Below are positions 728 to 41,425 of a stretch of 64,000 bases of DNA, one piece after another. The notes under the pieces are model-generated. The model saw only the letters and a list, made by a program, of their open reading frames with translations, had not been told where the DNA came from and did not search any database. Origin of the DNA: Chthoniobacterales bacterium (GTDB lineage: Bacteria; Verrucomicrobiota; Verrucomicrobiia; Chthoniobacterales; UBA6821). The translations under genes and the position numbers were made by a program. Where the stretch lies: positions 631-64,630 of the forward strand of contig JBMOFC010000007.1 in assembly GCA_049314455.1 (NCBI GenBank). The letters run 5' to 3'. Positions within the stretch are counted from its first letter, which is position 1; each line of letters opens with the position of its first letter.

Positions 728-3673
728 CTAATAATTTCCTTGTTTAGGCATTCCAAAAAGTTTGAATTTCTTTTTTTTAGGTGGTGGCGTTGGTGTGGGC
801 TGTAGCTTTTTCTCAAGGCCTTTGGCCTCGGTACCCAGATCAGAAGATCCTCCCTCAATATTGCTTGCTTTTTCCATAGAAGTGTTTGAATCAATCACAA
901 TGGGCTGAATCATTACCACCAGTTCGGTACGCACCTTATTTTTCTGGGTATGACCTCCTAGTAGTGGTCCAATAATGGGAATTTTATTGACGTAAGGAAT
1001 CCCTTTTTCTTCATTATTTTTTTCATCCTGGATCAATCCCCCTAGGACAATAGTAGAACCACTAGGAATACGGACACTTGTGGTTAATTCTTGCGTGTTA
1101 ATGACAGGAGCATTGATTCCCGTCTTAGCTTCATCAAGAGTCGCCTGAGTATCGACCGTTTGATTTTGCTGGGCAATGATGAGGTTGACTTCCTTATCGG
1201 AATTAATCAAAGGAATGACCTCTAGTTTTAATAAAACATCTTGGTAGGTAATATTGGCTGTGATCGAGTTAGCGGTCTGACTAGATGTTCCTGTTGCACC
1301 AGCATTGACCAAGCTATTTAAGGTCTGAGACTGATACGGAATACGACGTCCGGAGAGAATGGTGGCCTTCTTGTTATTACTCGTGTAAACGGTTGGGCGC
1401 GCGATAGTTTTAAATTTTCCAGTGCTTTCTAAAAATTTAGCGTACATATCCACAGAACCACCGATAGAACCAAAAAGAGTCAATCCTCCTTGGCTATTAC
1501 TAACGGCATTATTAATACCTGCCGTTCGTGTTAAACTAGAGCTTCCAAGGCTATTGGTTCCAGCGGCACCAGGAAAAGTAGAATTGATGCCATTGAGCAG
1601 AGCAGCTCCTGCGGCTTTTCCGAGATCACCTCCAAAAGTATTGGCGAGGGTATTGAATCCGTCATAGTGAAAAAGATAACTAGCCCCATACTCCATTCCT
1701 TCTTCCAGCCTCATTTGACCAATAACAGCTGCCAAGTAGACTTGTTGTGGGCGACGATCCAAGAGGTCGATGATTTGACGTGCCTTGGCTTTGCTTTCAG
1801 GAGGTCCATAAACAATAATGCTATTAGCAGTAGGATCTGCCACGATGCTGGTGGACCCGACGATTGCTGATTGCGGAGGTGATTGTCTTTGGGATTCATT
1901 CAAGCGATCTGCATGGTTACCTCCTGCGTTGACTCCACTACTTCCTCCAATGCTGCTAGAAGATCCATCCATTGGGTTTTGAGAACCTAGGAGTCCTGAG
2001 GAGGTACTACTACTACCGCTGTTATTAAAAGGATTCTGAGGTGTTGCTTGTGGTTTTATTTGATTTTGTGTGGTGTCATCATCTTTGTTTTTGAGCATGT
2101 CGACGAGCACAGGAAAAACATCAGTTGCAGACATGTAGTTCAAAGGGCGTACGAGCGGTTCTTCCGGAGCTTGAGCCTTATCGAGATTGGCAATTAATTC
2201 GCGAACATAGCGGTAGTTTTCAGCACGTGTGACGACAAGAATGCGATTGGTCCGCTTATCAGCAATGAATTGAACCTTGCCACTAAAGACACGTTCATCA
2301 CCCGGATTAGAATTATCGGAAGCAGGTGGAATGGGTTGCTGAGGTTGATTATTTGGTGTATTGGGACCACCAGGCTGCCCTGAACCTCCTTTAGCTGGAG
2401 TGGGTGCTGGGGTGCTACTTTCTTTTCCAAAAATTTGATTTAATGTCTCCACTGTTTTTTCTGCATCGGCACGTTGCAGGAGGACGAATTCAGTAATGAT
2501 TTGTGAAGATTCATGATCAATGACTTTAAGGAGTGCTAATGCTTTGCGAATGATAGGAGTCTTATCGGTGATGACGATGGCACTTGTGTTGGGAACAGCA
2601 ACAAGTGAGCCAAAGGGATTGAGCTGCACAACACCTTGAAGAATGGTAATAGCCTCGGTGGTGCTTAAAAAATGGAGAGGTTGATAAAAACTCACCAGTT
2701 GGTCTCCGTCCGTCGGAAGTTCCGATTCTTCGAGGTAGAGTGGAAGACCTTCTGTACGAGGAGGGCGGCTTGGTCCAAGTACCTTCACTGTTTTTTCATC
2801 AACAGGAATCAGGACGTATCCGTTGAGCAACATGGAGCTTTCCATGACATTGATTGCCTCTTTTTTCGAAATAGGATCGGCGATCATGACCGAGAGTTCC
2901 GGTCCAGCAAGATTGGAATCTCGAATGATGCGTTTGCCTGTTAATTTTTCATACAGAGCAAGAATTTCCATGATCGAAGTATGAGGAAATTGCATGCTGA
3001 TTTTTTCATTCAGATTGATGGGTGTTGGAGAAGCTGTAGGAGATGTGGTAGTAGCAGGAGAAACGAGGTTCGTTGAAGATGAGTCCGATATTGGAACAAC
3101 TGCTGGAGTAACTGCTGGAGTAACTGTTGGAGCGGCTGTTGGAGTAACTGTTGGAGTAACTGTTGGAGAAGCGGTTGAAGCTGCCTGCTCAGCAGAGAGG
3201 TTGGGTTGAGGAGAAGCAGCAGGTTGTTGTAGAGTCTCAGGAGCTTGTTTCATCGCCTGAAATTTTGCTCGTGCAGCACGAAGAGCTGAAAGAGCCGTTG
3301 CAGGCAAGGGACTCGTTTCTTTTTTAAGTGGTAACGTAGAGGCTTCTAGCTGATGCGGTCTTGCCGAAGCAGATGGTTTAAGATCTTTGGAAGATTCTGT
3401 GATCTCTAAAGGAGAATTTGGAAGTGACAGCCCTTCGTGAGTAACGGTAGGAGTTGGTGTCGCTGAAGCTGATGGTGTCGGCAACGGCGTCGCTGGCGTT
3501 GTCAATGATAGTGGGACGTTTGTAGTAAGAAGAGGCGTTGCTTTGACAACGGGTGTGGCGCTTGACTCTGGTACGGTTATTGTGGTTCTTGCTACAAGAG
3601 TGCTCTCCTCTGATAGCGCTACGGAGAAAGAACACAAAGCTAGGAAAGTGATCAGAAAGAGACGAGGGTGCAT
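728..3673 (-). CDS. gspD: Type II secretion system secretin (GspD family) with long Thr/Pro/Ala/Ser-rich N-terminal extension
   Basis: 981-aa ORF with signal peptide MHPRLFLITFLALCSFSVALS. It has a C-terminal secretin domain (VRIPSGSTIVLGGLIQDEKNNEEKGIPYVNKIPIIGPLLGG...TELVVMIQPIVI) and N-domain-like segments (SIIVYGPPESKAKARQIIDLLD). It is the last gene of the gsp operon. Confidence 0.9.
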   Translation of the reverse strand: MHPRLFLITFLALCSFSVALSEESTLVARTTITVPESSATPVVKATPLLTTNVPLSLTTPATPLPTPSASATPTPTVTHEGLSLPNSPLEITESSKDLKPSASARPHQLEASTLPLKKETSPLPATALSALRAARAKFQAMKQAPETLQQPAASPQPNLSAEQAASTASPTVTPTVTPTAAPTVTPAVTPAVVPISDSSSTNLVSPATTTSPTASPTPINLNEKISMQFPHTSIMEILALYEKLTGKRIIRDSNLAGPELSVMIADPISKKEAINVMESSMLLNGYVLIPVDEKTVKVLGPSRPPRTEGLPLYLEESELPTDGDQLVSFYQPLHFLSTTEAITILQGVVQLNPFGSLVAVPNTSAIVITDKTPIIRKALALLKVIDHESSQIITEFVLLQRADAEKTVETLNQIFGKESSTPAPTPAKGGSGQPGGPNTPNNQPQQPIPPASDNSNPGDERVFSGKVQFIADKRTNRILVVTRAENYRYVRELIANLDKAQAPEEPLVRPLNYMSATDVFPVLVDMLKNKDDDTTQNQIKPQATPQNPFNNSGSSSTSSGLLGSQNPMDGSSSSIGGSSGVNAGGNHADRLNESQRQSPPQSAIVGSTSIVADPTANSIIVYGPPESKAKARQIIDLLDRRPQQVYLAAVIGQMRLEEGMEYGASYLFHYDGFNTLANTFGGDLGKAAGAALLNGINSTFPGAAGTNSLGSSSLTRTAGINNAVSNSQGGLTLFGSIGGSVDMYAKFLESTGKFKTIARPTVYTSNNKKATILSGRRIPYQSQTLNSLVNAGATGTSSQTANSITANITYQDVLLKLEVIPLINSDKEVNLIIAQQNQTVDTQATLDEAKTGINAPVINTQELTTSVRIPSGSTIVLGGLIQDEKNNEEKGIPYVNKIPIIGPLLGGHTQKNKVRTELVVMIQPIVIDSNTSMEKASNIEGGSSDLGTEAKGLEKKLQPTPTPPPKKKKFKLFGMPKQGNY
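3098..3181 (-). repeat. Seven tandem 12-bp units inside gspD encoding (V/A)TP(T/A) repeats
   Basis: Plus strand reads AACTGCTGGAGT AACTGCTGGAGT AACTGTTGGAGC GGCTGTTGGAGT AACTGTTGGAGT AACTGTTGGAGA AGCGGTTGAAGC. This translates on the minus strand to ...PTVTPTVTPTAAPTVTPAVTPAV... Confidence 0.85.
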
Positions 3674-3727: not shown

Positions 3728-4414
3728 TTACTGATAAAAATTATTAGGCCCTTGCATTGGCTGACCAGAAATAGGTGGTCGAGTAATAACACGATGATTG
3801 TTGGGGTTATTGGTATTAGGCATTGTGCCTGGAGCATGTGGGGCATTGGGTAATGTCTGTCCAGGATAGTAGGGAGCGCCCGAAGGATGAAATGTATTTT
3901 TTTGCAGATTGTTTCCACTATTAAGAACTCCAGGTCCATTAAAGCGCTGTGGTCCCATGGTCGGAGCATTGGTATTGAGCTCTGGACTTGTAATCACACC
4001 TGTTTCTCCATTCACAAGAATAGTAGCTTTTAATTTATTAGGATCCGTTTCCTTCATGATATTCACAAGGGACATCGATTTTTTATTTGGTTTTTTTGTG
4101 AGCAACTCTCGACTTTGGTCGTTTTTGTCTAAAACAAAAATTTCTTCTTCCCCATCAAGGGTAATGATGCCAGTAACGGCATAGCGCTCTGCGAGAGGAG
4201 AAGATTCTTCGGCAGTCGCTAAAGAAAAAGGAGAATGTTGAAGGAGTGATTGAAAACTAGAAAGCTGGCGAGGCTTCATCCATGGGGAGGGAGGAATTGC
4301 ATCACTTTCCGTTTTTGATGTGTTTTCCCTGCTGTAGAGAGAGGTTAGCATTCCTAAAAATACCAAGAAAATCACCATGTAAAAACGAGTTTTTGAGGAT
4401 GAGGAGAAAATCAT
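3728..4414 (-). CDS. T2SS-associated membrane-anchored protein of unknown family (GspC/GspN/PilP-like position), Pro/Asn/Gly-rich C-terminus
   Basis: 228-aa ORF with one N-terminal TM (FYMVIFLVFLGMLTSLY). It has a 4-nt overlap with the upstream gspM-like ORF and lies directly upstream of gspD. No diagnostic motif was found. Confidence 0.4.
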   Translation of the reverse strand: MIFSSSSKTRFYMVIFLVFLGMLTSLYSRENTSKTESDAIPPSPWMKPRQLSSFQSLLQHSPFSLATAEESSPLAERYAVTGIITLDGEEEIFVLDKNDQSRELLTKKPNKKSMSLVNIMKETDPNKLKATILVNGETGVITSPELNTNAPTMGPQRFNGPGVLNSGNNLQKNTFHPSGAPYYPGQTLPNAPHAPGTMPNTNNPNNHRVITRPPISGQPMQGPNNFYQ

Positions 4415-4968
4415 CGAGAGGAAGTCGTTTGAAAAAATTGTTTGATCTCAAGATCGACAATGACCTTCGTCGGTTCCGAATCACTTTTGATGGTAAATTT
4501 ATTGATGGCTCTCCATGCGGTAGGATTTTGCAAGGCAAAGAGAAATTTCACCAATCCATCGAAGGACCCAGAAATCTTGGCTTGAACGCTGACGGAGGAG
4601 CCATAAGAAGAGGTATGAGGTGGGAGTAAATTTTCTTCGATGATTTTAAGACCCGCTTTTTCAGCTTCGTTTCGTTCGCATTTTAGGAGTTCAGCACTTG
4701 CTTGGTCGTTGTTCCAATTAGGGAGAGGATGTTGATGAATCCATGTGGTGGCAGGTTGGAGCATTTCTGCCATCATGATTACAGAGCGTCCTTCTGCCAG
4801 TTGCGTATTCAGCGTACTAATCTTAGATTGCAAAACGCGATGCATGTTCAAAAACAATTTTAAACTGAAAAGATTGAGCGCTAAAAAAACGGCTCCGCAG
4901 AGCACGAAGAAGAGCGTTTTTTCACTCGGAGCTAGTTTTCGCATGGGGTAGTGATCCTTCTGTTTCAA
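4411..4968 (-). CDS. GspM/PilO-like bitopic T2SS assembly protein
   Basis: 185 aa with a single N-terminal TM (LFFVLCGAVFLALNLFSL) followed by a soluble domain. Size, topology and position after the GspL-like ORF fit; the call rests on position only. Confidence 0.45.
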   Translation of the reverse strand: MKQKDHYPMRKLAPSEKTLFFVLCGAVFLALNLFSLKLFLNMHRVLQSKISTLNTQLAEGRSVIMMAEMLQPATTWIHQHPLPNWNNDQASAELLKCERNEAEKAGLKIIEENLLPPHTSSYGSSVSVQAKISGSFDGLVKFLFALQNPTAWRAINKFTIKSDSEPTKVIVDLEIKQFFQTTSSR

Positions 4969-6373: not shown

Positions 6374-7431
6374 TGTTCTTGCCAGCTTAACATACTCCCA
6401 CCCTGTGAGTCTCCTATGATGACAACAATATGATGTGTGATGCCATGATAGATTCCTTTGCTATCGATGCGTCGAATATTGCCAGTGACTCCAAAATAGT
6501 TCAGTAACAGTTGTTCTTGGAGACCCGAGACTCCCATGAGTTTTGCTGCCTGGTTGATATCATTAAAAATCAAATCATCCTCTGTACCCGAGATTCCATC
6601 AGGACCAGCGCATAACTTTACAAAAGCTTCTGTCTGCTGTGGAGTTAATCCGAGCAGATCTATGAACATTTCCGGACTGCAATAATTGATGTTAATTTTT
6701 CCTGGATTGAACGTCGAAAAATAGTGTTCCCACTTAGGATTTGCCTTCACTACTGATGCGAAGCCAATGACCATCCCCATTTCACGAGCATGAACAAAGG
6801 GAGCATTGGGAGGATATCCTTCAAGGCCGTGCTTTTCATATTCAGCTTGCTTGGCTCCATGAGCAGAACGGAGCTCTGTTCGGCTTTGCCAATCATAGAG
6901 CCCGTCAATGGCAGTCTCCTGATCTTTTTGAGAAACACCCCATTTTTCAAACAGTCGCTGAAAAATAACACGATCTGATTTGGCTAACCAAGTATTCGGG
7001 TTGATAAAACCTGATTCGTTGTTGAGATGCACGGAAAAACTTTCTCCTTCTTTGTCTGTGGGATCACCTTGAGTTAAAGCAGGGTCATTCGGTCTGATAT
7101 TCGGATTCATGCCGATGGCCAGTCCGCTTAGTGCCAACTGACGTGCATGGAAAAGACGCTCTGCATGACTTTCTTCATCAAGCCAACTGCTGACACTTCC
7201 TGCAACTAAAATGATAAGTCCTGCTAAAAAAGCGATAGCCCAGAGTACCATGGGAAGTGCGAAGGCATTGCTTCGCAATGCTAGTTGTCGGTTGTCAGTT
7301 GTCAGTTGACAGCCTGAGCCATTGCTGCGCAGCTGTAGTTCGCACGTCATTCCCGCGGAGGCGGGAAGTGCAGTTCGAACGTCATTCTCGCGGAGGCGGG
7401 AATCGCAGTTGTTGCTAGCTCGTTGTGGCAT
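6370..7431 (-). CDS. gspK: Minor pseudopilin GspK-like protein
   Basis: Hydrophobic N-terminus AFALPMVLWAIAFLAGLIILVAG and a GspK-like helix-hairpin-helix region (YCSPEMFIDLLGLTPQQTEAFVKLCAGPDGISGTEDDLIFNDINQAAKLMGV). The ATG-ORF N-terminus (7279-7431) is made of repeats. An in-frame TTG at 7278 gives MRSNAFALP... (303 aa) and is the more plausible start. Confidence 0.6.
   Translation of the reverse strand: MPQRASNNCDSRLRENDVRTALPASAGMTCELQLRSNGSGCQLTTDNRQLALRSNAFALPMVLWAIAFLAGLIILVAGSVSSWLDEESHAERLFHARQLALSGLAIGMNPNIRPNDPALTQGDPTDKEGESFSVHLNNESGFINPNTWLAKSDRVIFQRLFEKWGVSQKDQETAIDGLYDWQSRTELRSAHGAKQAEYEKHGLEGYPPNAPFVHAREMGMVIGFASVVKANPKWEHYFSTFNPGKININYCSPEMFIDLLGLTPQQTEAFVKLCAGPDGISGTEDDLIFNDINQAAKLMGVSGLQEQLLLNYFGVTGNIRRIDSKGIYHGITHHIVVIIGDSQGGSMLSWQEQ
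7265..7312 (-). repeat. Pseudopilin leader module (17-nt hairpin + CAACTGACAAC repeats), copy at gspK
   Basis: Plus strand GCATTGCTTCGCAATGC + TAGTTGTCGGTTGTCAGTTGTCAGTTGACAG. The same 48-nt composite occurs at 8299-8346 and 9508-9555. Confidence 0.85.
7341..7410. repeat. Two tandem copies of the GC hairpin repeat (GTCATTCCCGCGGAGGCGGGAA type)
   Basis: CGCACGTCATTCCCGCGGAGGCGGGAAGTGCAGTT followed by CGAACGTCATTCTCGCGGAGGCGGGAATCGCAGTT. In the long gspK ORF these translate as ...DSRLRENDV...LPASAGMT... Confidence 0.85.
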
Positions 7432-13078: not shown

Positions 13079-14848
13079 ATGTCTTCCGATTCCCATCCCC
13101 TCACGCAGCAAGAGAGATCTTCCTCGACTTCTTTTTCAGCCCTCGCTGATCAGCTTTTACTGATTGCACAGAAAATAGGATGCACTGAAATTGCTCCTTT
13201 AAAAACAGCGCTTGAGCAAGCCTCCTTTTCTCAATGTTCCTTGATTGGAGCCATGATCGACACAGGTCTTGTTGCCGAGCGCGATTTTCTCTGTGAAGTA
13301 GCACATTCTTTTGGGCTGGAGTGGAGGGAAGAAGGAGAATTGGCTCCATCGCCTCATGTGCGTGACCGCTTTCCAGCACGTTTGGCGCTTGGTTTTAACG
13401 TCATTTGTGAAGAAGAAGATCTTGCGTCCAATAACAAAGAATTACGGCTGCTTACCTTTGATCCCTTTGATTACGGTGCATGGAAGGTGTTAACCATGTA
13501 CCACCATGGTCCGATTCGTTTTGTGATGACGACCCGCAGGCGCCTCATCGATGTGATCAAGTCAACGTACGGTGTCGGTGCAGAGACCTTTGAAGAGCTT
13601 ATGGAGGGACGTGAAGAAGAAACGGCTTCCTCTTCCAACGAAGAAATTAATGTGGTTGACGAAGAAGATTCAGAAGCCTCCGTCATGAAATTTGTGAATC
13701 AAATTCTGCGTGAAGCCCTCGAGCAAGCAGCTACCGATATTCATTTCGAGCCACTTGGGAGAGATCTCCGCATTCGTTACCGTATCGATGGAGTGTTGCA
13801 CGAGGCTCCTGTTCCTCCACGCATTAAAATGTTTCAAGATTCGGTTACCTCGCGTCTTAAAATTATGGCTGGTCTTGATATTGCCGAGCGACGACTGCCT
13901 CAAGACGGACGTATTGCCCTCGAGCATGGAGGGCACTCCATCGACGTGCGTGTGGCCACAATTCCTTGCGTTCATGGTGAAAATGTCAGCTTGCGTTTGC
14001 TAGGACAAGAACGGTTTGATTTCAAACGACTCGGTCTAGAAGCCGGTATTGAGAGTCGTATTCGCGAGCTTATTGCAATGTCGAATGGCATTGTGCTTGT
14101 CACCGGGCCAACAGGATGTGGTAAAAGCACCTCGCTCTACACTTTTTTAAGTCATCTTAATGTCAAAGAGCGACGCATTGTGACCATTGAAGATCCAGTC
14201 GAACACAAGTTAGATGGAGTAATTCAAATCGCAGTCAAGCCCGAGATCGACCTGACTTTTGCCAATGCGCTGCGCAGCATTTTGCGTGGTGATCCTAATG
14301 TGATCATGGTCGGTGAAATGCGTGATGCCGAGACAGCCGACATCGCGATTCGTGCAGCATTGACCGGGCACCTTGTTTTTAGCACGCTCCACACCAATGA
14401 TGCCGTTGGTGGTATCACGCGACTTTTGGATATGGGCGTCGAACCCTTTCTCGTCGGCTCCTCCGTGCGGGCCTTCCTGGCGCAGCGTCTGGTTCGGAAA
14501 TTGTGTCCTCATTGTTCCAAACCTTCGGAAATTACCGATGAAGAATTAATGAAAATTGGATTTCCGATGGAACTGAGAGGGGGCATTCGTCAACCCGTGG
14601 GATGCGACCAGTGTCGCCAAACCGGATATGCAGGGCGACTCGCGATCATGGAAATTTGTCCCATGACCTCTGATCTCCAAGAGCTCATTCAAAAACGAGC
14701 TACCGGAAAAGATTTTATGGCACAAGCGATCAAGGATGGGATGATCCCACTCCGCATCGATGGTTGGCAGAAAGTGGCTCAAGGGGTCACTTCGGTCGAA
14801 GAAGTGGTGAGGGTGACTTCAAGCGAGTTAGTGGCGCTCCATCATTAG
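13079..14848 (+). CDS. gspE: Type II secretion ATPase GspE (GspE/PilB family)
   Basis: 589 aa with Walker A GPTGCGKST, Asp box, Walker B IMVGEMRD, His box and a tetracysteine motif (CPHC...CDQC). The N-terminal GspE-N-like domain is present. Confidence 0.92.
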   Translation: MSSDSHPLTQQERSSSTSFSALADQLLLIAQKIGCTEIAPLKTALEQASFSQCSLIGAMIDTGLVAERDFLCEVAHSFGLEWREEGELAPSPHVRDRFPARLALGFNVICEEEDLASNNKELRLLTFDPFDYGAWKVLTMYHHGPIRFVMTTRRRLIDVIKSTYGVGAETFEELMEGREEETASSSNEEINVVDEEDSEASVMKFVNQILREALEQAATDIHFEPLGRDLRIRYRIDGVLHEAPVPPRIKMFQDSVTSRLKIMAGLDIAERRLPQDGRIALEHGGHSIDVRVATIPCVHGENVSLRLLGQERFDFKRLGLEAGIESRIRELIAMSNGIVLVTGPTGCGKSTSLYTFLSHLNVKERRIVTIEDPVEHKLDGVIQIAVKPEIDLTFANALRSILRGDPNVIMVGEMRDAETADIAIRAALTGHLVFSTLHTNDAVGGITRLLDMGVEPFLVGSSVRAFLAQRLVRKLCPHCSKPSEITDEELMKIGFPMELRGGIRQPVGCDQCRQTGYAGRLAIMEICPMTSDLQELIQKRATGKDFMAQAIKDGMIPLRIDGWQKVAQGVTSVEEVVRVTSSELVALHH

Positions 14849-14918
14849 TGCCAAGGCGCTTGTTGAGTGTGGAAAATATTTTATAACGTCAGGCGATTCT
14901 AACTATGGTCCTTCTTCC

Positions 14919-15917
14919 ATGAAAAAATTCTTCTTTCTCTTTTCATTAATCACGTTATTAGGATGTTGTTCTTCAAGCGTAGCAAACACTCAGCCTGTCT
15001 TAATTGCCGATCCGAGAGTGCTCTCGATTCCTATTTGTGACAATCAGGAGCCGCTCGTGGATCTTAGAAAAGAAGGCGGAATTGCCATTGGACCTTCCCC
15101 TGAAATTCCCAACAACACCGACTATACGTTTGTGAGAAAAAGTGTGGCTGAAAAATTACTCCAGGCACAAAAAAAATTACCACCTGGTCTTCAATTTCAA
15201 CTCTATGAAGGATATCGCAGCTTAGCTTTGCAAAAAAAACTTTTTGATACGTTCTTTGCGAAAATAAAAAAGGAACATCCTTCCTGGAGTTACAAACAAC
15301 AATTTTTAGAAACAACGCATTTGGTCTCTCCCGTTATCAATCTCGATGCGAGTCATAATATCCCGCCTCATTCTACGGGTGCAGCCATTGATGTTTATTT
15401 AGTCGATACCGCAGGAAAGTCAGTACCGATGGGCATCCATCCTAAAGATTGGATGCAGGATCTTGATGGCTCTCTCTCGTTGCCCCATTCTCAAAAAATT
15501 TCCGCTGAGGCGCGTCACTACCGAGCCATCATGAGTCGTGCTTTAAAGTCGGTAGGATTTGTTAATCTTGATACGGAATATTGGCATTGGTCTTATGGTG
15601 ATCGTTACTGGGCCTTCAAGAACCTGGATTCAAAGTCTGCTGAGACTGCGAATAAGAGTGTCGCGCCAAACGTCATCCCCGCAGAGGCGGGGATCGTCTC
15701 CTCGAGTACCTCTTGTACACTGCGGGACGGCGCGCCGTCGACTACTTGTTCTTCATCAGCCTTGAGTACTTTGAATGCAGGTTCTAAGAAAAAGAAACCA
15801 TGTGCCATTTATGGGACTACGTCTAAAAAGAGTGCGGCAGCAAATAACGCTAAGCCAGGAAAGCGTTGCGATGATTTCAAACCAAATAAGAGTTATCACA
15901 ATGATAGCTCACTTTGA
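14919..15917 (+). CDS. D-Ala-D-Ala dipeptidase (VanX/DdpX, peptidase M15D-like) lipoprotein with ~95-aa repeat-derived C-terminal tail
   Basis: Lipobox LLGC. It carries YEGYRSLALQKKLF, HSTGAAIDVYL and EYWHWSYGDRYWA, the zinc and catalytic motifs of the VanX family. The ORF continues through the element at 15629-15776. Confidence 0.75.
   Translation: MKKFFFLFSLITLLGCCSSSVANTQPVLIADPRVLSIPICDNQEPLVDLRKEGGIAIGPSPEIPNNTDYTFVRKSVAEKLLQAQKKLPPGLQFQLYEGYRSLALQKKLFDTFFAKIKKEHPSWSYKQQFLETTHLVSPVINLDASHNIPPHSTGAAIDVYLVDTAGKSVPMGIHPKDWMQDLDGSLSLPHSQKISAEARHYRAIMSRALKSVGFVNLDTEYWHWSYGDRYWAFKNLDSKSAETANKSVAPNVIPAEAGIVSSSTSCTLRDGAPSTTCSSSALSTLNAGSKKKKPCAIYGTTSKKSAAANNAKPGKRCDDFKPNKSYHNDSSL
15629..15776 (+). 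mobile_element. ~148-bp MITE-like element, in frame within the VanX-like ORF
   Basis: ...CAAAGTCTGCTGAGACTGCGA...GCGCCAAACGTCATCCCCGCAGAGGCGGGGATCGTCTCCTCGAGTACCTCTTGTACACTGCGGGACGGCGCGCC...TACTTTGAA. A homologous copy lies at 31978-32125. It translates to SKSAETANKSVAPNVIPAEAGIVSSSTSCTLRDGAPSTTCSSSALSTLNAGS. Confidence 0.8.
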
Positions 15918-33485: not shown

Positions 33486-33742
33486 TAGCCCGGATATTTC
33501 ATGCTGATCTATTGTGAAAGCCGGGAAGCCTTATGGATGCTGCGTTGGGCTCATGTTTTGACTTGGGTAACACCAGTGCTCGGGAGAGCCTGGGGCAGAC
33601 TGCCTTGAGGCAGCCAGAAGGGCGAGCCGAGCAGGTGCGAGCGAGTCAATATGTGCGCTACAGTCCGGTGCCAAAGTGCTCGTCTGCTTTATCCCATCAG
33701 CCTTCGCAGCTTCCTCATCACGATCAGCATGAAATGTCTGAG
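33486..33742. mobile_element. ~257-bp MITE-like element supplying the C-terminal ~70 aa of sulfotransferase paralogue 4
   Basis: Terminal inverted repeats are TAGCCCGGATATTTCATGCTGATC (33486-33509) and GATCAGCATGAAATGTCTGAG (33722-33742). Its right part is homologous to 6230-6300. The paralogues end where the element begins. Confidence 0.7.
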
Positions 33743-34757
33743 ATAGAAAACCAAGTTGGATATTCCGTTGATGTAATGTTTGGCAAAGGTTAGCAATCGA
33801 GCGTGTATTTTTATTTTTTATTTTATTGAATTCAAAAAGAGTGTGTTGACGGTCGAGGATCGTTCTTTGCAGCTCTTCCATGGTGAAGTCATTTTTTTCT
33901 GCTAGGACTAAAAGAGAGGTAACTTTTGAAAATTGTTGTTTCCATTTTTTTAAAGGGATGTGAGCAGCATGAAATGTTGTTTGGCCCTTTGCGATGGGGA
34001 GAAGCGTCTCATAAATTTCCATGGCACATTGCTGGTAAGAATTATTTGTGGAGAAATATTTTTTCTCTTCCTGAAAATGGCAAAGCATAGTGTCGATAAA
34101 ATCATGACAGTAGGTCTGTAGTGCTTTGGGTTGAAGCGTGAGTTCAAAAGCCTCAGCGATCCGTTGCATTTGATATTCCGGATGTTTCAGAAGCTCGTTG
34201 TAATCCACTAAAATGCGGTTGTATCCCTGGGTCTGTTCCAGACAACTGATAAGGTACGATATCCAATTCCAAAAAAGCTTTTCCAGATGTTCTGTCCTGA
34301 AAAGTTTGTGACGATTCGTTGTGGAGGCAGCAACGCTCCAGGGATCTCTTAATGAGATGACAAAAGATGCTTGTAGGCCGCATGCAGTAAAAACTTTTTT
34401 CCAAAAAGGGAGAAAAAGTGAAAACCTAGGGTCCTTGATACCGAAAACGTTGGAAGAAGAAGTCTTTTTCAACAAGAGTTCTGAGGCTGTGGTTAAAAAA
34501 TTTTGCTGACACAACAACGTCACCTCTTCTTCCGTCAGCGCGAGTACAAGACGCCGCCGCCCTTCCAGCGCATACAAGAGGGTTGTATTGAATTCCTGAA
34601 TGTCTACATCTTCATAGTCGCCCTTTGGATTATAAGAATTCGCTGGAATGAAGGAATTGCCTAAGCAGATGCCCATCGTTTCAAGACCTTTCGTTAAAGC
34701 GCTTGTGCCACTTCTAGGAACTCCAAGAACGAGGATCACTCTTTTATGGTTTTCCAT
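33531..34757 (-). CDS. Sulfotransferase-family protein with coiled coil (paralogue 4) and repeat-derived C-terminal extension
   Basis: VILVLGVPRSGTSALTKGL and SLRDPWSVAAST. The tail ...HADRDEEAAKADGIKQTSTLAPDCS... is encoded by the element at 33486-33742. Confidence 0.65.
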   Translation of the reverse strand: MENHKRVILVLGVPRSGTSALTKGLETMGICLGNSFIPANSYNPKGDYEDVDIQEFNTTLLYALEGRRRLVLALTEEEVTLLCQQNFLTTASELLLKKTSSSNVFGIKDPRFSLFLPFWKKVFTACGLQASFVISLRDPWSVAASTTNRHKLFRTEHLEKLFWNWISYLISCLEQTQGYNRILVDYNELLKHPEYQMQRIAEAFELTLQPKALQTYCHDFIDTMLCHFQEEKKYFSTNNSYQQCAMEIYETLLPIAKGQTTFHAAHIPLKKWKQQFSKVTSLLVLAEKNDFTMEELQRTILDRQHTLFEFNKIKNKNTRSIANLCQTLHQRNIQLGFLSQTFHADRDEEAAKADGIKQTSTLAPDCSAHIDSLAPARLALLAASRQSAPGSPEHWCYPSQNMSPTQHP

Positions 34758-39119: not shown

Positions 39120-40700
39120 ATGTCATTTTCAATATCAGGACAGACACATCACTCCGAGTGGAGCTATCCAGAGAACGAAAAAATTCCTCAAGCCTCAACA
39201 ACTCCAAACCCAGAGGATCCCTTTTATCCAATTCTTAACTTGAGGCAGAGCGAGCTCAATAGGCTTCTTCCCTCTATTAGAGTCCGCGAGGAGAGTGGTG
39301 TTGAATCTTCTATAAAATCTATTGTTGAGCAGAGAAATTCTCCAGCGGGAGTCTCTGAAATAAAAGACCATCTTGCTACCTATGCAACGCCTTCTAAAGA
39401 GCACGTAGGAACGGGGGGGCTAAAAAAATTTTTAAGTCCTCGTGAAATTTTAAAAAAAGATATCGAAGCGAGTAAGACAGACGGGGAGGTTAAGGGTCTT
39501 TTAGCAGAGGAGGGGGGATCACTAAAACTCAATCTGAAAGGAAATATTAGCCAAGTAGATGCTGCCGGCACAATCACATCAGAATGTCGTGAATGCCTAG
39601 ATGCTTTTGGAATTGAGGTGAAAGGAAAAATAGGAGAGGGGGCATTTGGCGTTGTTCTAGATGCTTCTATTGAGGGAGATAATGGAGAATATGTCGTCAA
39701 ACTAGAAAAAGAAATAATCATGAAACCTCTTGTTGAAGCAGAAGGTTTGTCTTTCCATGAGCGAGGGGACATAGCGGCGAGTTGTGTCAAGAAACTCACC
39801 AATGTCACCAAACCAATCTTTGTGATTGTGGCACTTCAAAAAGAAGAAAATAGTGAAATAGAATACCACTATCTTTCAGTGATGGAGGCAGAATCATTTT
39901 CTAAAGAATTTGCATGTCGTTATCCAAAAGCAAAAATAGGTATCGTTGCTCAACTCATGGAGCGTGTTGCTGGCGTCGAATTAAATGATGCCATTTGGGG
40001 CTCCAGTAGTGTAAGAGCAATAAATTTCAAGCCTTCAGGAATGCATTTTAAGAATGTGATGAATTCACTTTTTGTGCACTTGGAACGTGCTATTCTTAGC
40101 AACTATGTGCATCGCGATATAAAACCTGAAAATATCATTTACAATCCAAAAACTGGAAGGGTGCAACTTATTGATGGAGGGCTAGCAGCTTTTGGACGCA
40201 GTAAACTTCAATTGAAAGAGTACCAAGGGACTGCTCTTTATATGTCACCCCGCGTCTCGGTTGCAGAAAAGAATGATAAGACATATGGCCCAGAAGTTGA
40301 TGCTTACAGCATCGCCATAACCTTGTTGCATATGATTGACCCCATTTCTTTTCATTCAATCCGTGATAGTATAACGCGTACAAATGACAATTTTACTAGT
40401 GCTTTAATTACTCATATTAATGATGAAGATATAGAATCAAAGTACGTTGAGGCCTACGTGAAGGCTGCTGGAATTTATGCAGATCTTCCTGGAGTTCGTA
40501 ATTCTAAAATTTTTCAAGAACTCAATAAGCCAGAAAATATCTTCATTCGAAAATTAATCAGCTTATGCTTTCAAGTCTCTGCAGGAGGAGAGCGAGGTGA
40601 AACAGCTTTTCAAGAATGGCAAACGGCTTTTCACTCGTGGCAATCAGAGAATGGTTTTTCTAAGGAAATAAAACTTCTTTCTGAGTTGGATTCAGAATGA
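39120..40700 (+). CDS. Eukaryotic-like Ser/Thr protein kinase with ~170-aa non-kinase N-terminal region
   Basis: Gly-loop GEGAFGVV, Lys in YVVKLEK, catalytic loop HRDIKPENIIYN, LIDGGLAAFG (DFG-equivalent DGG) and GTALYMSPRV (APE-equivalent). No TM segment. Confidence 0.8.
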   Translation: MSFSISGQTHHSEWSYPENEKIPQASTTPNPEDPFYPILNLRQSELNRLLPSIRVREESGVESSIKSIVEQRNSPAGVSEIKDHLATYATPSKEHVGTGGLKKFLSPREILKKDIEASKTDGEVKGLLAEEGGSLKLNLKGNISQVDAAGTITSECRECLDAFGIEVKGKIGEGAFGVVLDASIEGDNGEYVVKLEKEIIMKPLVEAEGLSFHERGDIAASCVKKLTNVTKPIFVIVALQKEENSEIEYHYLSVMEAESFSKEFACRYPKAKIGIVAQLMERVAGVELNDAIWGSSSVRAINFKPSGMHFKNVMNSLFVHLERAILSNYVHRDIKPENIIYNPKTGRVQLIDGGLAAFGRSKLQLKEYQGTALYMSPRVSVAEKNDKTYGPEVDAYSIAITLLHMIDPISFHSIRDSITRTNDNFTSALITHINDEDIESKYVEAYVKAAGIYADLPGVRNSKIFQELNKPENIFIRKLISLCFQVSAGGERGETAFQEWQTAFHSWQSENGFSKEIKLLSELDSE

Positions 40701-41263
40701 ATCACAATATTCAAAAAAATAAAATCATGAATAACCTCTCCACAACCGCTTATTTTCAGCTTCTCACAGCTTTTTTAAAAGCCATTGGCCAATCAGAAGC
40801 CATCGACTCGATCAACAAAGAAGAGGGAATCGTAGAGTGGGAAGTGGGTAACCTTCTGGTGCGCCTCATTCCTCATCGCCTGAGTGAGGAAGAAAATACG
40901 GGGGGGCTTCTAGAACCTGATGCGATCATTATCGAAGCAGATCTGATGCTCCTTGATTTAGAAAATCGACAGGTCAACCATGATCGTTTTCTTATCCTCC
41001 ATCAGCTTAATGCGGTGAGCCGCCTCACCACTGGGATCGTGGCTTTTATTACCGATGCTGGAATGCTCTCCATTAATAAAATTATTCCTCTAGAAAAATT
41101 AGATCAGGAAGGATTAGCTAATCAAATGGCCAAAGTCATCAAAGCAGCTGAAGAACTCTATGCAGGGTGGAATGAACTAGGTAATGCTTTCGATCCTAGA
41201 AATGCTTTTTTACAGAAAGAGGAAAAGTTTCAAGCAGAACCTACACTTGATCAGAAGGTGTAA
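40697..41263 (+). CDS. Secretion-chaperone-like protein (CesT/SycE/YbjN-type pattern), translationally coupled to the kinase
   Basis: ATGA overlap with the kinase stop. At 188 aa and acidic, its pattern FQLLTAFLKAIGQ...VEWEVGNLLVRLIP...IIIEADLMLLDL...FLILHQLNAV...GIVAFITDAGMLSINKIIPLEKL...AEELYAGW resembles class I type III secretion chaperones and YbjN-family proteins. This is pattern recognition only. Confidence 0.4.
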   Translation: MNHNIQKNKIMNNLSTTAYFQLLTAFLKAIGQSEAIDSINKEEGIVEWEVGNLLVRLIPHRLSEEENTGGLLEPDAIIIEADLMLLDLENRQVNHDRFLILHQLNAVSRLTTGIVAFITDAGMLSINKIIPLEKLDQEGLANQMAKVIKAAEELYAGWNELGNAFDPRNAFLQKEEKFQAEPTLDQKV

Positions 41264-41321: not shown

Positions 41322-41425
41322 ACGTATCTTTTTAAGTAATAGTGTTAGGAAAACCACTCTTTTTTGCGTTTCTTTTGAGGCGCCTTTTTATTTTTTCGGT
41401 CTTGTAAACGGGTGTAGGCTTAGGA

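Follow-up and report, generated by a model that had tools for sequence, protein, structure and literature searches.

A candidate type III secretion effector kinase and its class IA-like chaperone in a Chthoniobacterales genome

Two adjacent, co-oriented genes were analyzed in a 64,000-nucleotide stretch of contig JBMOFC010000007.1 (referred to as the window) from the Chthoniobacterales assembly GCA_049314455.1. The first encodes a divergent Ser/Thr kinase of the Hanks/eukaryotic protein kinase (ePK) type with 526 residues (39120-40700, + strand), and the second encodes a small acidic protein of the CesT family (40727-41263, + strand). The pair is likely a type III secretion (T3S) effector and its dedicated class IA-like chaperone. 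This assignment draws on the fold and family of both proteins, the conservation of the catalytic residues of the kinase, an injectisome encoded in the same genome, the recurrent adjacency of the two genes and their restriction to a genus that bears a T3S system (T3SS), each of which was observed directly. A sequence-only reading of the window had proposed an effector/chaperone pair at this position, and the proposal is supported: an unrelated fold for the small protein and a genome free of T3SS were both tested, and neither occurred.

Fold, family and start of the small protein

Pfam, AlphaFold2 (AF2) and Foldseek were used for identification of the small protein. Its sole Pfam match is CesT (PF05932), and among its 34 homologues CesT is matched by 18 (E ≤ 0.01, best E = 1.5e-6) and YbjN by one. 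NCBIfam returned nothing meaningful, and a search of the sequence against PDB sequences gave no match even at E ≤ 10; only the fold search succeeded. The AF2 model, built on a 34-sequence alignment, has a predicted local distance difference test score (pLDDT) of 80.9 and a predicted template modelling score (pTM) of 0.72. Its topology is alpha1-beta1-beta2-beta3-alpha2-beta4-beta5-alpha3, with helices at residues 18-29, 91-111 and 137-164 and strands at 46-50, 53-60, 76-85, 114-118 and 123-131. The Foldseek comparison of this model with the PDB placed T3S chaperones at all of ranks 1-34 (SycN, SycH, SchA, ExsC, VecA, CesT, SycE, SrcA/STM2138, SicP, SpcS and SycT), with a probability of 1.00 and template modelling scores by target of 0.54-0.78. 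YbjN and TY-Chap proteins, which are not secretion proteins, have the general alpha/beta fold in common with the window chaperone and are matched by some ESM Atlas clusters, but their structures rank behind these 34, and the YbjN-like structures 2plg and 4h5b enter the list only from rank 35. Feature and structure searches of the ESM Atlas likewise placed CesT clusters nearest to the small protein. These results bear out the earlier call of a class I chaperone-like fold of the CesT or YbjN kind, and the Pfam match, modelled topology and fold ranking together identify the small protein as a predicted class I T3S chaperone.

Class I T3S chaperones have masses of 15-20 kDa and isoelectric points (pI) of 4-5, and those of class IA are encoded beside their effector (2026 review, PMC13466201). 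The small protein falls within this size and pI definition, with 178 residues, 19.9 kDa and a pI of 4.59 when counted from Met11. Its gene lies 26 nt downstream of the kinase gene, the adjacency of class IA, which makes the kinase the presumed cargo. The sequence-only reading had also described the protein as acidic, and it is (pI 4.8 for the longest reading frame and 4.6 from Met11). Fold, topology, acidic pI and similar size are features the window chaperone has in common with CesT of enteropathogenic Escherichia coli, SycE, SycH, SicP, SrcA, ExsC and VecA. It differs from the solved class I chaperones in sequence (14-20% identity) and in about 25 extra C-terminal residues, which are modelled with low confidence. 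The family is unusually conserved within itself, having 22 invariant positions in 34 sequences.

The two open reading frames (ORFs) reported by the sequence-only reading, 39120-40700 (+, 526 aa) and 40697-41263 (+, 188 aa), are both present. In ATGA (...gattcagaATGAatcac), the 188-aa ORF has its first ATG overlapping with the kinase stop, which had been taken as translational coupling. The overlap stands as a feature of the sequence; the functional start is probably Met11, encoded by the ATG at 40727. All 33 chaperone homologues (33/33) in a collection of 5.8 billion proteins start at the residue aligned to Met11, and the entries for the window chaperone itself begin at Met11 in both this collection and the ESM Atlas. 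The start ATGAAYGAYCT is common to all chaperone copies and follows an A/C-rich leader; a Shine-Dalgarno sequence was not found in these leaders. The ATG upstream of Met11 is unique to the window copy, and the spacers in other kinase-chaperone pairs measure 25-262 nt. The Met11 starts, the shared start sequence and the spacers elsewhere point to 40727 as the gene start, and the predicted chaperone gene is most likely 40727-41263, 26 nt past the kinase stop. The A-rich spacer of 26 nt (40701-40726, +) is part of the extra stretch that the longest ORF includes and that gives rise to the overlap. The apparent ATGA coupling probably results from the choice of the longest ORF; the genes are still tightly linked and co-oriented.

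The kinase and its N-terminal region

The 526-aa protein was characterized by Pfam, alignment, AF2 and Foldseek. Pfam Pkinase (PF00069) matches with 74.2 bits (cut-off 31.7) over an aligned span of only residues 279-416, and residues ~155-510 comprise the kinase domain and a helical C-terminal extension. The AF2 model has a pLDDT of 77 overall and >90 over residues ~160-410, and it is confident over residues ~160-510. The best Foldseek matches of the model are the eukaryotic kinases TNIK, PKC, CaMKII, DCLK1 and PAK1, and the best sequence matches are eukaryotic as well (CaMK, MRCK and CDK12). At E ≤ 1e-30, an exhaustive HMMER search of 1.84 billion representative proteins returned 14 proteins, a number that rose to 70 at E ≤ 1e-10. 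About 50 clusters can be aligned across the entire catalytic and C-terminal region; more distant matches share only the generic catalytic loop.

The sequence-only reading had credited the kinase with a complete Hanks core. All of the motifs that it quoted are present, namely GEGAFG (172-177), VVKLEK (containing K194), HRDIKPEN (331-338), DGG (352-354) and SPR (376-378), and the catalytic residues are conserved. K194, D333 and N338 are invariant in the 41-sequence family alignment, and the G-loop glycines G172, G174 and G177 together with H331, R332, K335, D352, G354 and P377 are at least 90% conserved. The word "complete" was slightly generous in one respect: the alpha-C glutamate was not identified in this alignment, in which the sole invariant Glu between K194 and residue 285 is E196, two residues past the lysine. 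The divergent N-lobe has an insertion that falls after the beta3 lysine and before the hinge. DGG for DFG and SPR for APE are family traits, and paralogues have DFG, DYG or DTG. The kept catalytic residues suggest that the window kinase is catalytically active.

Two further features of the family were recorded. The helical C-terminal extension (window 40400-40650, residues ~430-510) is family-specific and contains a conserved motif, S-x-GG-x-x-G-x-x-AF-x-x-W-x-x-AF. A 565-aa paralogue in the same genome (C8:50424-52121, +; L032:2425-4122) has HGN for HRD, lacks the DFG aspartate and has no Pfam kinase match, and is likely a pseudokinase by sequence; it keeps the N-terminal module of the family and has no adjoining chaperone.

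The N-terminal ~155 codons of the kinase gene (39120-39584, +) would contain the T3S signal and the chaperone-binding region, a placement suggested by composition and low pLDDT. Residues 1-165 have no Pfam domain match, and the protein has neither a signal peptide nor a transmembrane-like segment (the maximum Kyte-Doolittle value for a 19-residue window is 1.19), in agreement with the earlier statement that no transmembrane or sensor domain precedes the catalytic core. The pLDDT is <50 over residues 1-62 and 77-102. Ser, Thr, Asn, Gln and Pro make up 11/25 of residues 1-25, which include 1 basic residue.

A toxin/immunity or anti-phage module is another conceivable identity, since the cassette consists of two genes, one of them for a small acidic protein, occurs several times per genome and varies in gene order. 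The kinase would then be a toxic or abortive-infection effector and the partner its antidote, and PADLOC kinase models do match the protein (mad6, 2.4e-15, and PD-T4-6). These matches extend no further than the generic catalytic loop (residues ~310-410), PADLOC gave no match for the partner, and the defence-system assignment was rejected on these grounds. The partner has the fold of a T3S chaperone, the pair has no mobile-element or defence-island context, and the distribution of the families tracks the injectisome (see below), all of which makes a toxin or defence function very improbable.

Gene linkage, distribution and the injectisome

Linkage of the two genes recurs beyond the window. The source genome contains 3 kinase-then-chaperone pairs, located on contig C7 (the window) and on contigs C74 and C60. 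Pairs are also found, in both gene orders, in other metagenome-assembled genomes (MAGs) and in metagenome contigs: at locus L013 the chaperone gene precedes the kinase gene with 4 nt between them, two pairs are present at locus L017, which shows synteny with the window, and further pairs occur at loci L018, L019, L020, L022 and L036. Across 7 species of the genus, 9/12 chaperone copies have a kinase copy no more than about 260 nt away. The pairwise identities of the kinases correlate with those of their own chaperones (r = 0.74, Mantel p about 0.002). Mean pairwise identity is 34% for the kinases and 60% for the chaperones, indicating that the kinase diverges much faster.

Some loci depart from this arrangement. 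L017 encodes a 369-aa protein (13203-14312, +) that aligns with the kinase family over the N-terminal and N-lobe part, stops short of the HRD loop and precedes a second chaperone copy (14498-14954, +); it is a truncated form of the kinase or else a decoy that the chaperone binds. A chaperone subgroup with ~55% identity is always found between the genes for CTP synthase (pyrG) and arginine decarboxylase (speA), at L015 and L023-L027 (chaperone at ~4001-4520), with 8-170 nt spacers and no kinase; such a copy may serve several cargoes. A 508-aa protein near one of these kinase-less chaperones (L015:1761-3287) was considered as a kinase relative and rejected (hhalign probability 0.2, no Pfam match).

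NCBIfam and Pfam cut-offs were used to score injectisome components across the assembly, which has 2.0 Mb in 86 contigs and is 97% complete. Contig C1 encodes SctJ (214.6 bits, cut-off 162), SctN (620 bits, cut-off 605) and SctV (757 bits, over its cut-off) along with SctL, SctO, SctP, SctQ, SctR, SctS, SctT, SctU and SctD, and the SctC secretin is on contig C12 (338.6 bits, cut-off 238). Two tandem SctF needle genes (C1:5992-6180 and 6487-6675, - strand; 31.8 bits each, over the cut-off) lie upstream of the sct cluster. C1 also has an LcrR-like gene, SctW (HrpJ+TyeA) and a tetratricopeptide repeat chaperone. Judged by gene content, the genome encodes a complete injectisome on C1 with its secretin on C12. 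A flagellar origin of the export genes was rejected: there is a single FHIPEP gene, the secretin is of the SctC type, SctW, SctD and SctF are present, and flagellin was not found in the genome. The sequence-only reading had noted that the window lacks T3SS genes, and this is correct. The secretin in the window (728-3673, -, 981 aa) scores 93.5 bits against the SctC cut-off of 238 and was rejected as an injectisome part; it is of the type II secretion system type. A literature search for T3SS in Chthoniobacterales, Xiphinematobacter or freshwater Verrucomicrobia found no relevant paper.

Four more CesT-family genes were detected in the assembly, with Pfam scores of 38.7-64.1 bits: C10:36535-37897(-), C27:7783-10614(-), C71:2694-4337(-) and C30:18591-19103(-). 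Three of the four directly precede same-strand unannotated ORFs (291, 748 and 365 aa), candidates for further T3SS effectors.

The distribution of both families was determined in a sample of 201 genomes of the order, using E ≤ 1e-30 for the kinase family, E ≤ 1e-10 for the chaperone family and a score over the cut-off for SctJ. The kinase family is present in 8/8 species of its own genus and the chaperone family in 6/8; both are at 0/14 in the sister genus and were not found in the rest of the order sampled. SctJ occurs in every sampled species of the genus (8/8) and of one other genus (5/5), and in none of the sister genus (0/14). Genomes of the kinase-bearing genus have 1-4 kinases each, and the relatives are Chthoniobacterales, Spartobacteria or Verrucomicrobia MAGs from lakes. 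This distribution, as read from the genomes, fits a T3SS-dependent role. The other SctJ-bearing genus (g11; G009, G024, G038, G050 and G061) includes two single-contig genomes of 0.9 Mb, and the kinase and chaperone families were not found in it.

The proposed mechanism starts in the bacterial cytoplasm, where the acidic 178-aa CesT-fold protein, presumably as a homodimer, would bind the unstructured N-terminus of the kinase. The chaperone would keep the kinase secretion-competent and pass it on to the injectisome of C1 and C12 at its sorting platform and ATPase. Injection would then bring the kinase into a eukaryotic cell, which in view of the freshwater relatives is probably a protist or alga, and there the kinase would phosphorylate host proteins through its intact catalytic center. 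In this scheme we infer chaperone dimerization, kinase binding and the binding site, as well as secretion, the host and the substrate.

Several observations weigh against a secreted effector with a dedicated chaperone. The CesT score of the window copy is borderline, standing exactly at the threshold (22.0 bits, cut-off 22), and the CesT/YbjN fold occurs outside T3SS as well. The co-occurrence of the families with the injectisome is confined to one genus or clade and is essentially one phylogenetic event. The chaperone copies that do not adjoin a kinase form the more distant pyrG-speA subgroup, and some kinases have no neighboring chaperone. The pair lies among the housekeeping genes ruvC and lipB and genes for a metallo-beta-lactamase (MBL) hydrolase and an ATP-binding cassette (ABC) transporter. 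It begins 46 nt after lipB, and no promoter-like site was found in the interval by a scan that was not informative, as shuffled sequences contained more such sites. The N-terminal 155 aa of the kinase, the expected chaperone-binding site, cannot be aligned with the closest orthologues (E > 0.1), and a search for a conserved chaperone-binding motif by this alignment ended without significant similarity. The chaperones of these same orthologues are 70-76% identical despite the unalignable kinase N-termini. The window kinase also lacks half of the N-terminal module GTLRLVKNWDG...WYHFWN that is common to most family members.

The chaperones without a kinase at the pyrG-speA locus and the kinases without a chaperone could mean that the two genes are adjacent but unrelated, with the chaperone serving other T3SS substrates and the kinase acting as an ordinary bacterial Ser/Thr kinase. 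The adjacency of 9 of the 12 chaperone copies to a kinase, in 7 species, both orders and different genomic contexts, and the joint divergence of the families argue against this, and we consider it improbable.

The lack of conservation in the kinase N-terminus alongside a conserved chaperone means that the binding site may lie elsewhere in the kinase. Class I chaperones are known to recognize loose structural motifs, and this chaperone either does likewise or contacts a kinase region that is conserved. The latter contact is central to a different explanation, a cytoplasmic kinase and its regulator, in which the CesT/YbjN-fold protein binds the folded catalytic domain or the C-terminal extension and controls or silences a kinase with bacterial targets and no secretion. 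A chaperone far more conserved than the kinase N-terminus is expected for contact with a conserved surface, the housekeeping context and possible co-transcription with lipB would suit such a role, and YbjN-like proteins do occur lower in the fold list. The CesT fold also has non-secretion roles such as the CesT-CsrA interaction (5z38, among the Foldseek matches; PMC13466201). Set against this explanation are the distribution of both families, which were found in the T3SS-bearing genus alone (0/14 species of the sister genus, none of the other ~178 sampled genomes), and the secretion chaperones that fill the 34 best fold matches. The kinase N-terminus has ~100 aa that are disordered and polar, with no sensor or transmembrane domain, and the kinase family, with its multiple copies, fast evolution and a pseudokinase among its members, has traits typical of effector families and not of housekeeping signaling. 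We regard the regulator explanation as unlikely and keep it in consideration because of the unaligned kinase N-terminus and the conserved chaperone. A T3SS effector with its class IA-like chaperone is the identity that we favor.

Two other features were recorded in the window. A terminator-like hairpin with a T-run lies at 41366-41393 (+), ~100 nt past the chaperone stop, and is a consensus match only. A 408-aa sulfotransferase-family protein (Sulfotransfer_3, Sulfotransfer_1) is encoded at 33531-34757 (-) beside a fumarase gene and is unusual for a small bacterial genome.

Known systems and biological meaning

The mechanism proposed here is not new, since both chaperone-effector pairs and injected eukaryote-like kinases, SycO-YopO among them, are well known. 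The nearest precedent is SycO-YopO/YpkA of Yersinia, in which the gene for a class I chaperone lies beside that for a T3SS-injected Hanks-type Ser/Thr kinase in a sycO-ypkA-yopJ operon (PMC1933539, PMC2738681). The window pair resembles this system in that an acidic class I chaperone gene adjoins an ePK-like kinase gene, a non-catalytic N-terminus precedes the kinase domain and the apparatus is encoded elsewhere. The gene order in the window is kinase then chaperone, unlike sycO-ypkA, and the reverse order occurs in relatives of the window kinase. The window kinase has no detectable sequence relationship with YopO beyond the generic kinase core, and YopO is absent from the top 50 fold matches. 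No guanine nucleotide dissociation inhibitor (GDI) or actin-binding domain was detected in the window kinase, whose C-terminus is the family-specific helical extension, and its family, in contrast to YopO, is multi-copy and belongs to a freshwater Verrucomicrobiota genus.

LegK1 of Legionella, delivered by a type IV secretion system, and XopAU of Xanthomonas, delivered by a T3SS, are secreted ePK-like effector kinases. The window kinase would share with them the concept of a eukaryote-like kinase delivered into host cells. Its catalytic region matches the NCBIfam models weakly (LegK1, 27.7 bits against a cut-off of 550; XopAU, 14.6 against 450), and PknB-type and lanthionine-synthetase kinase models outscore both. 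By these scores the window kinase is not a member of the LegK1 or XopAU families.

The kinase and the small protein form a real and well-supported pair of the chaperone-effector type, of moderate interest that comes mainly from the host lineage. What is new is the setting, an uncultured freshwater Verrucomicrobiota genus with ~2 Mb genomes and a full injectisome, and a genus-specific, multi-copy, rapidly diverging kinase family that travels with its own chaperone. This genus of planktonic freshwater Chthoniobacterales with small genomes is usually treated as free-living. We suggest tentatively, as a proposal that falls a little short of an even chance, that the genus interacts with eukaryotes and that its injectisome and expanding kinase family, mostly with dedicated chaperones, manipulate protist or algal hosts or grazers, in which case the kinases would be new lineage-specific injected enzymes of host signaling. 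The pair offers a concrete and testable entry point to a host-associated way of life so far hidden in an abundant group of lake bacteria, and it supplies a set of uncharacterized kinases that probably target eukaryotic signaling.

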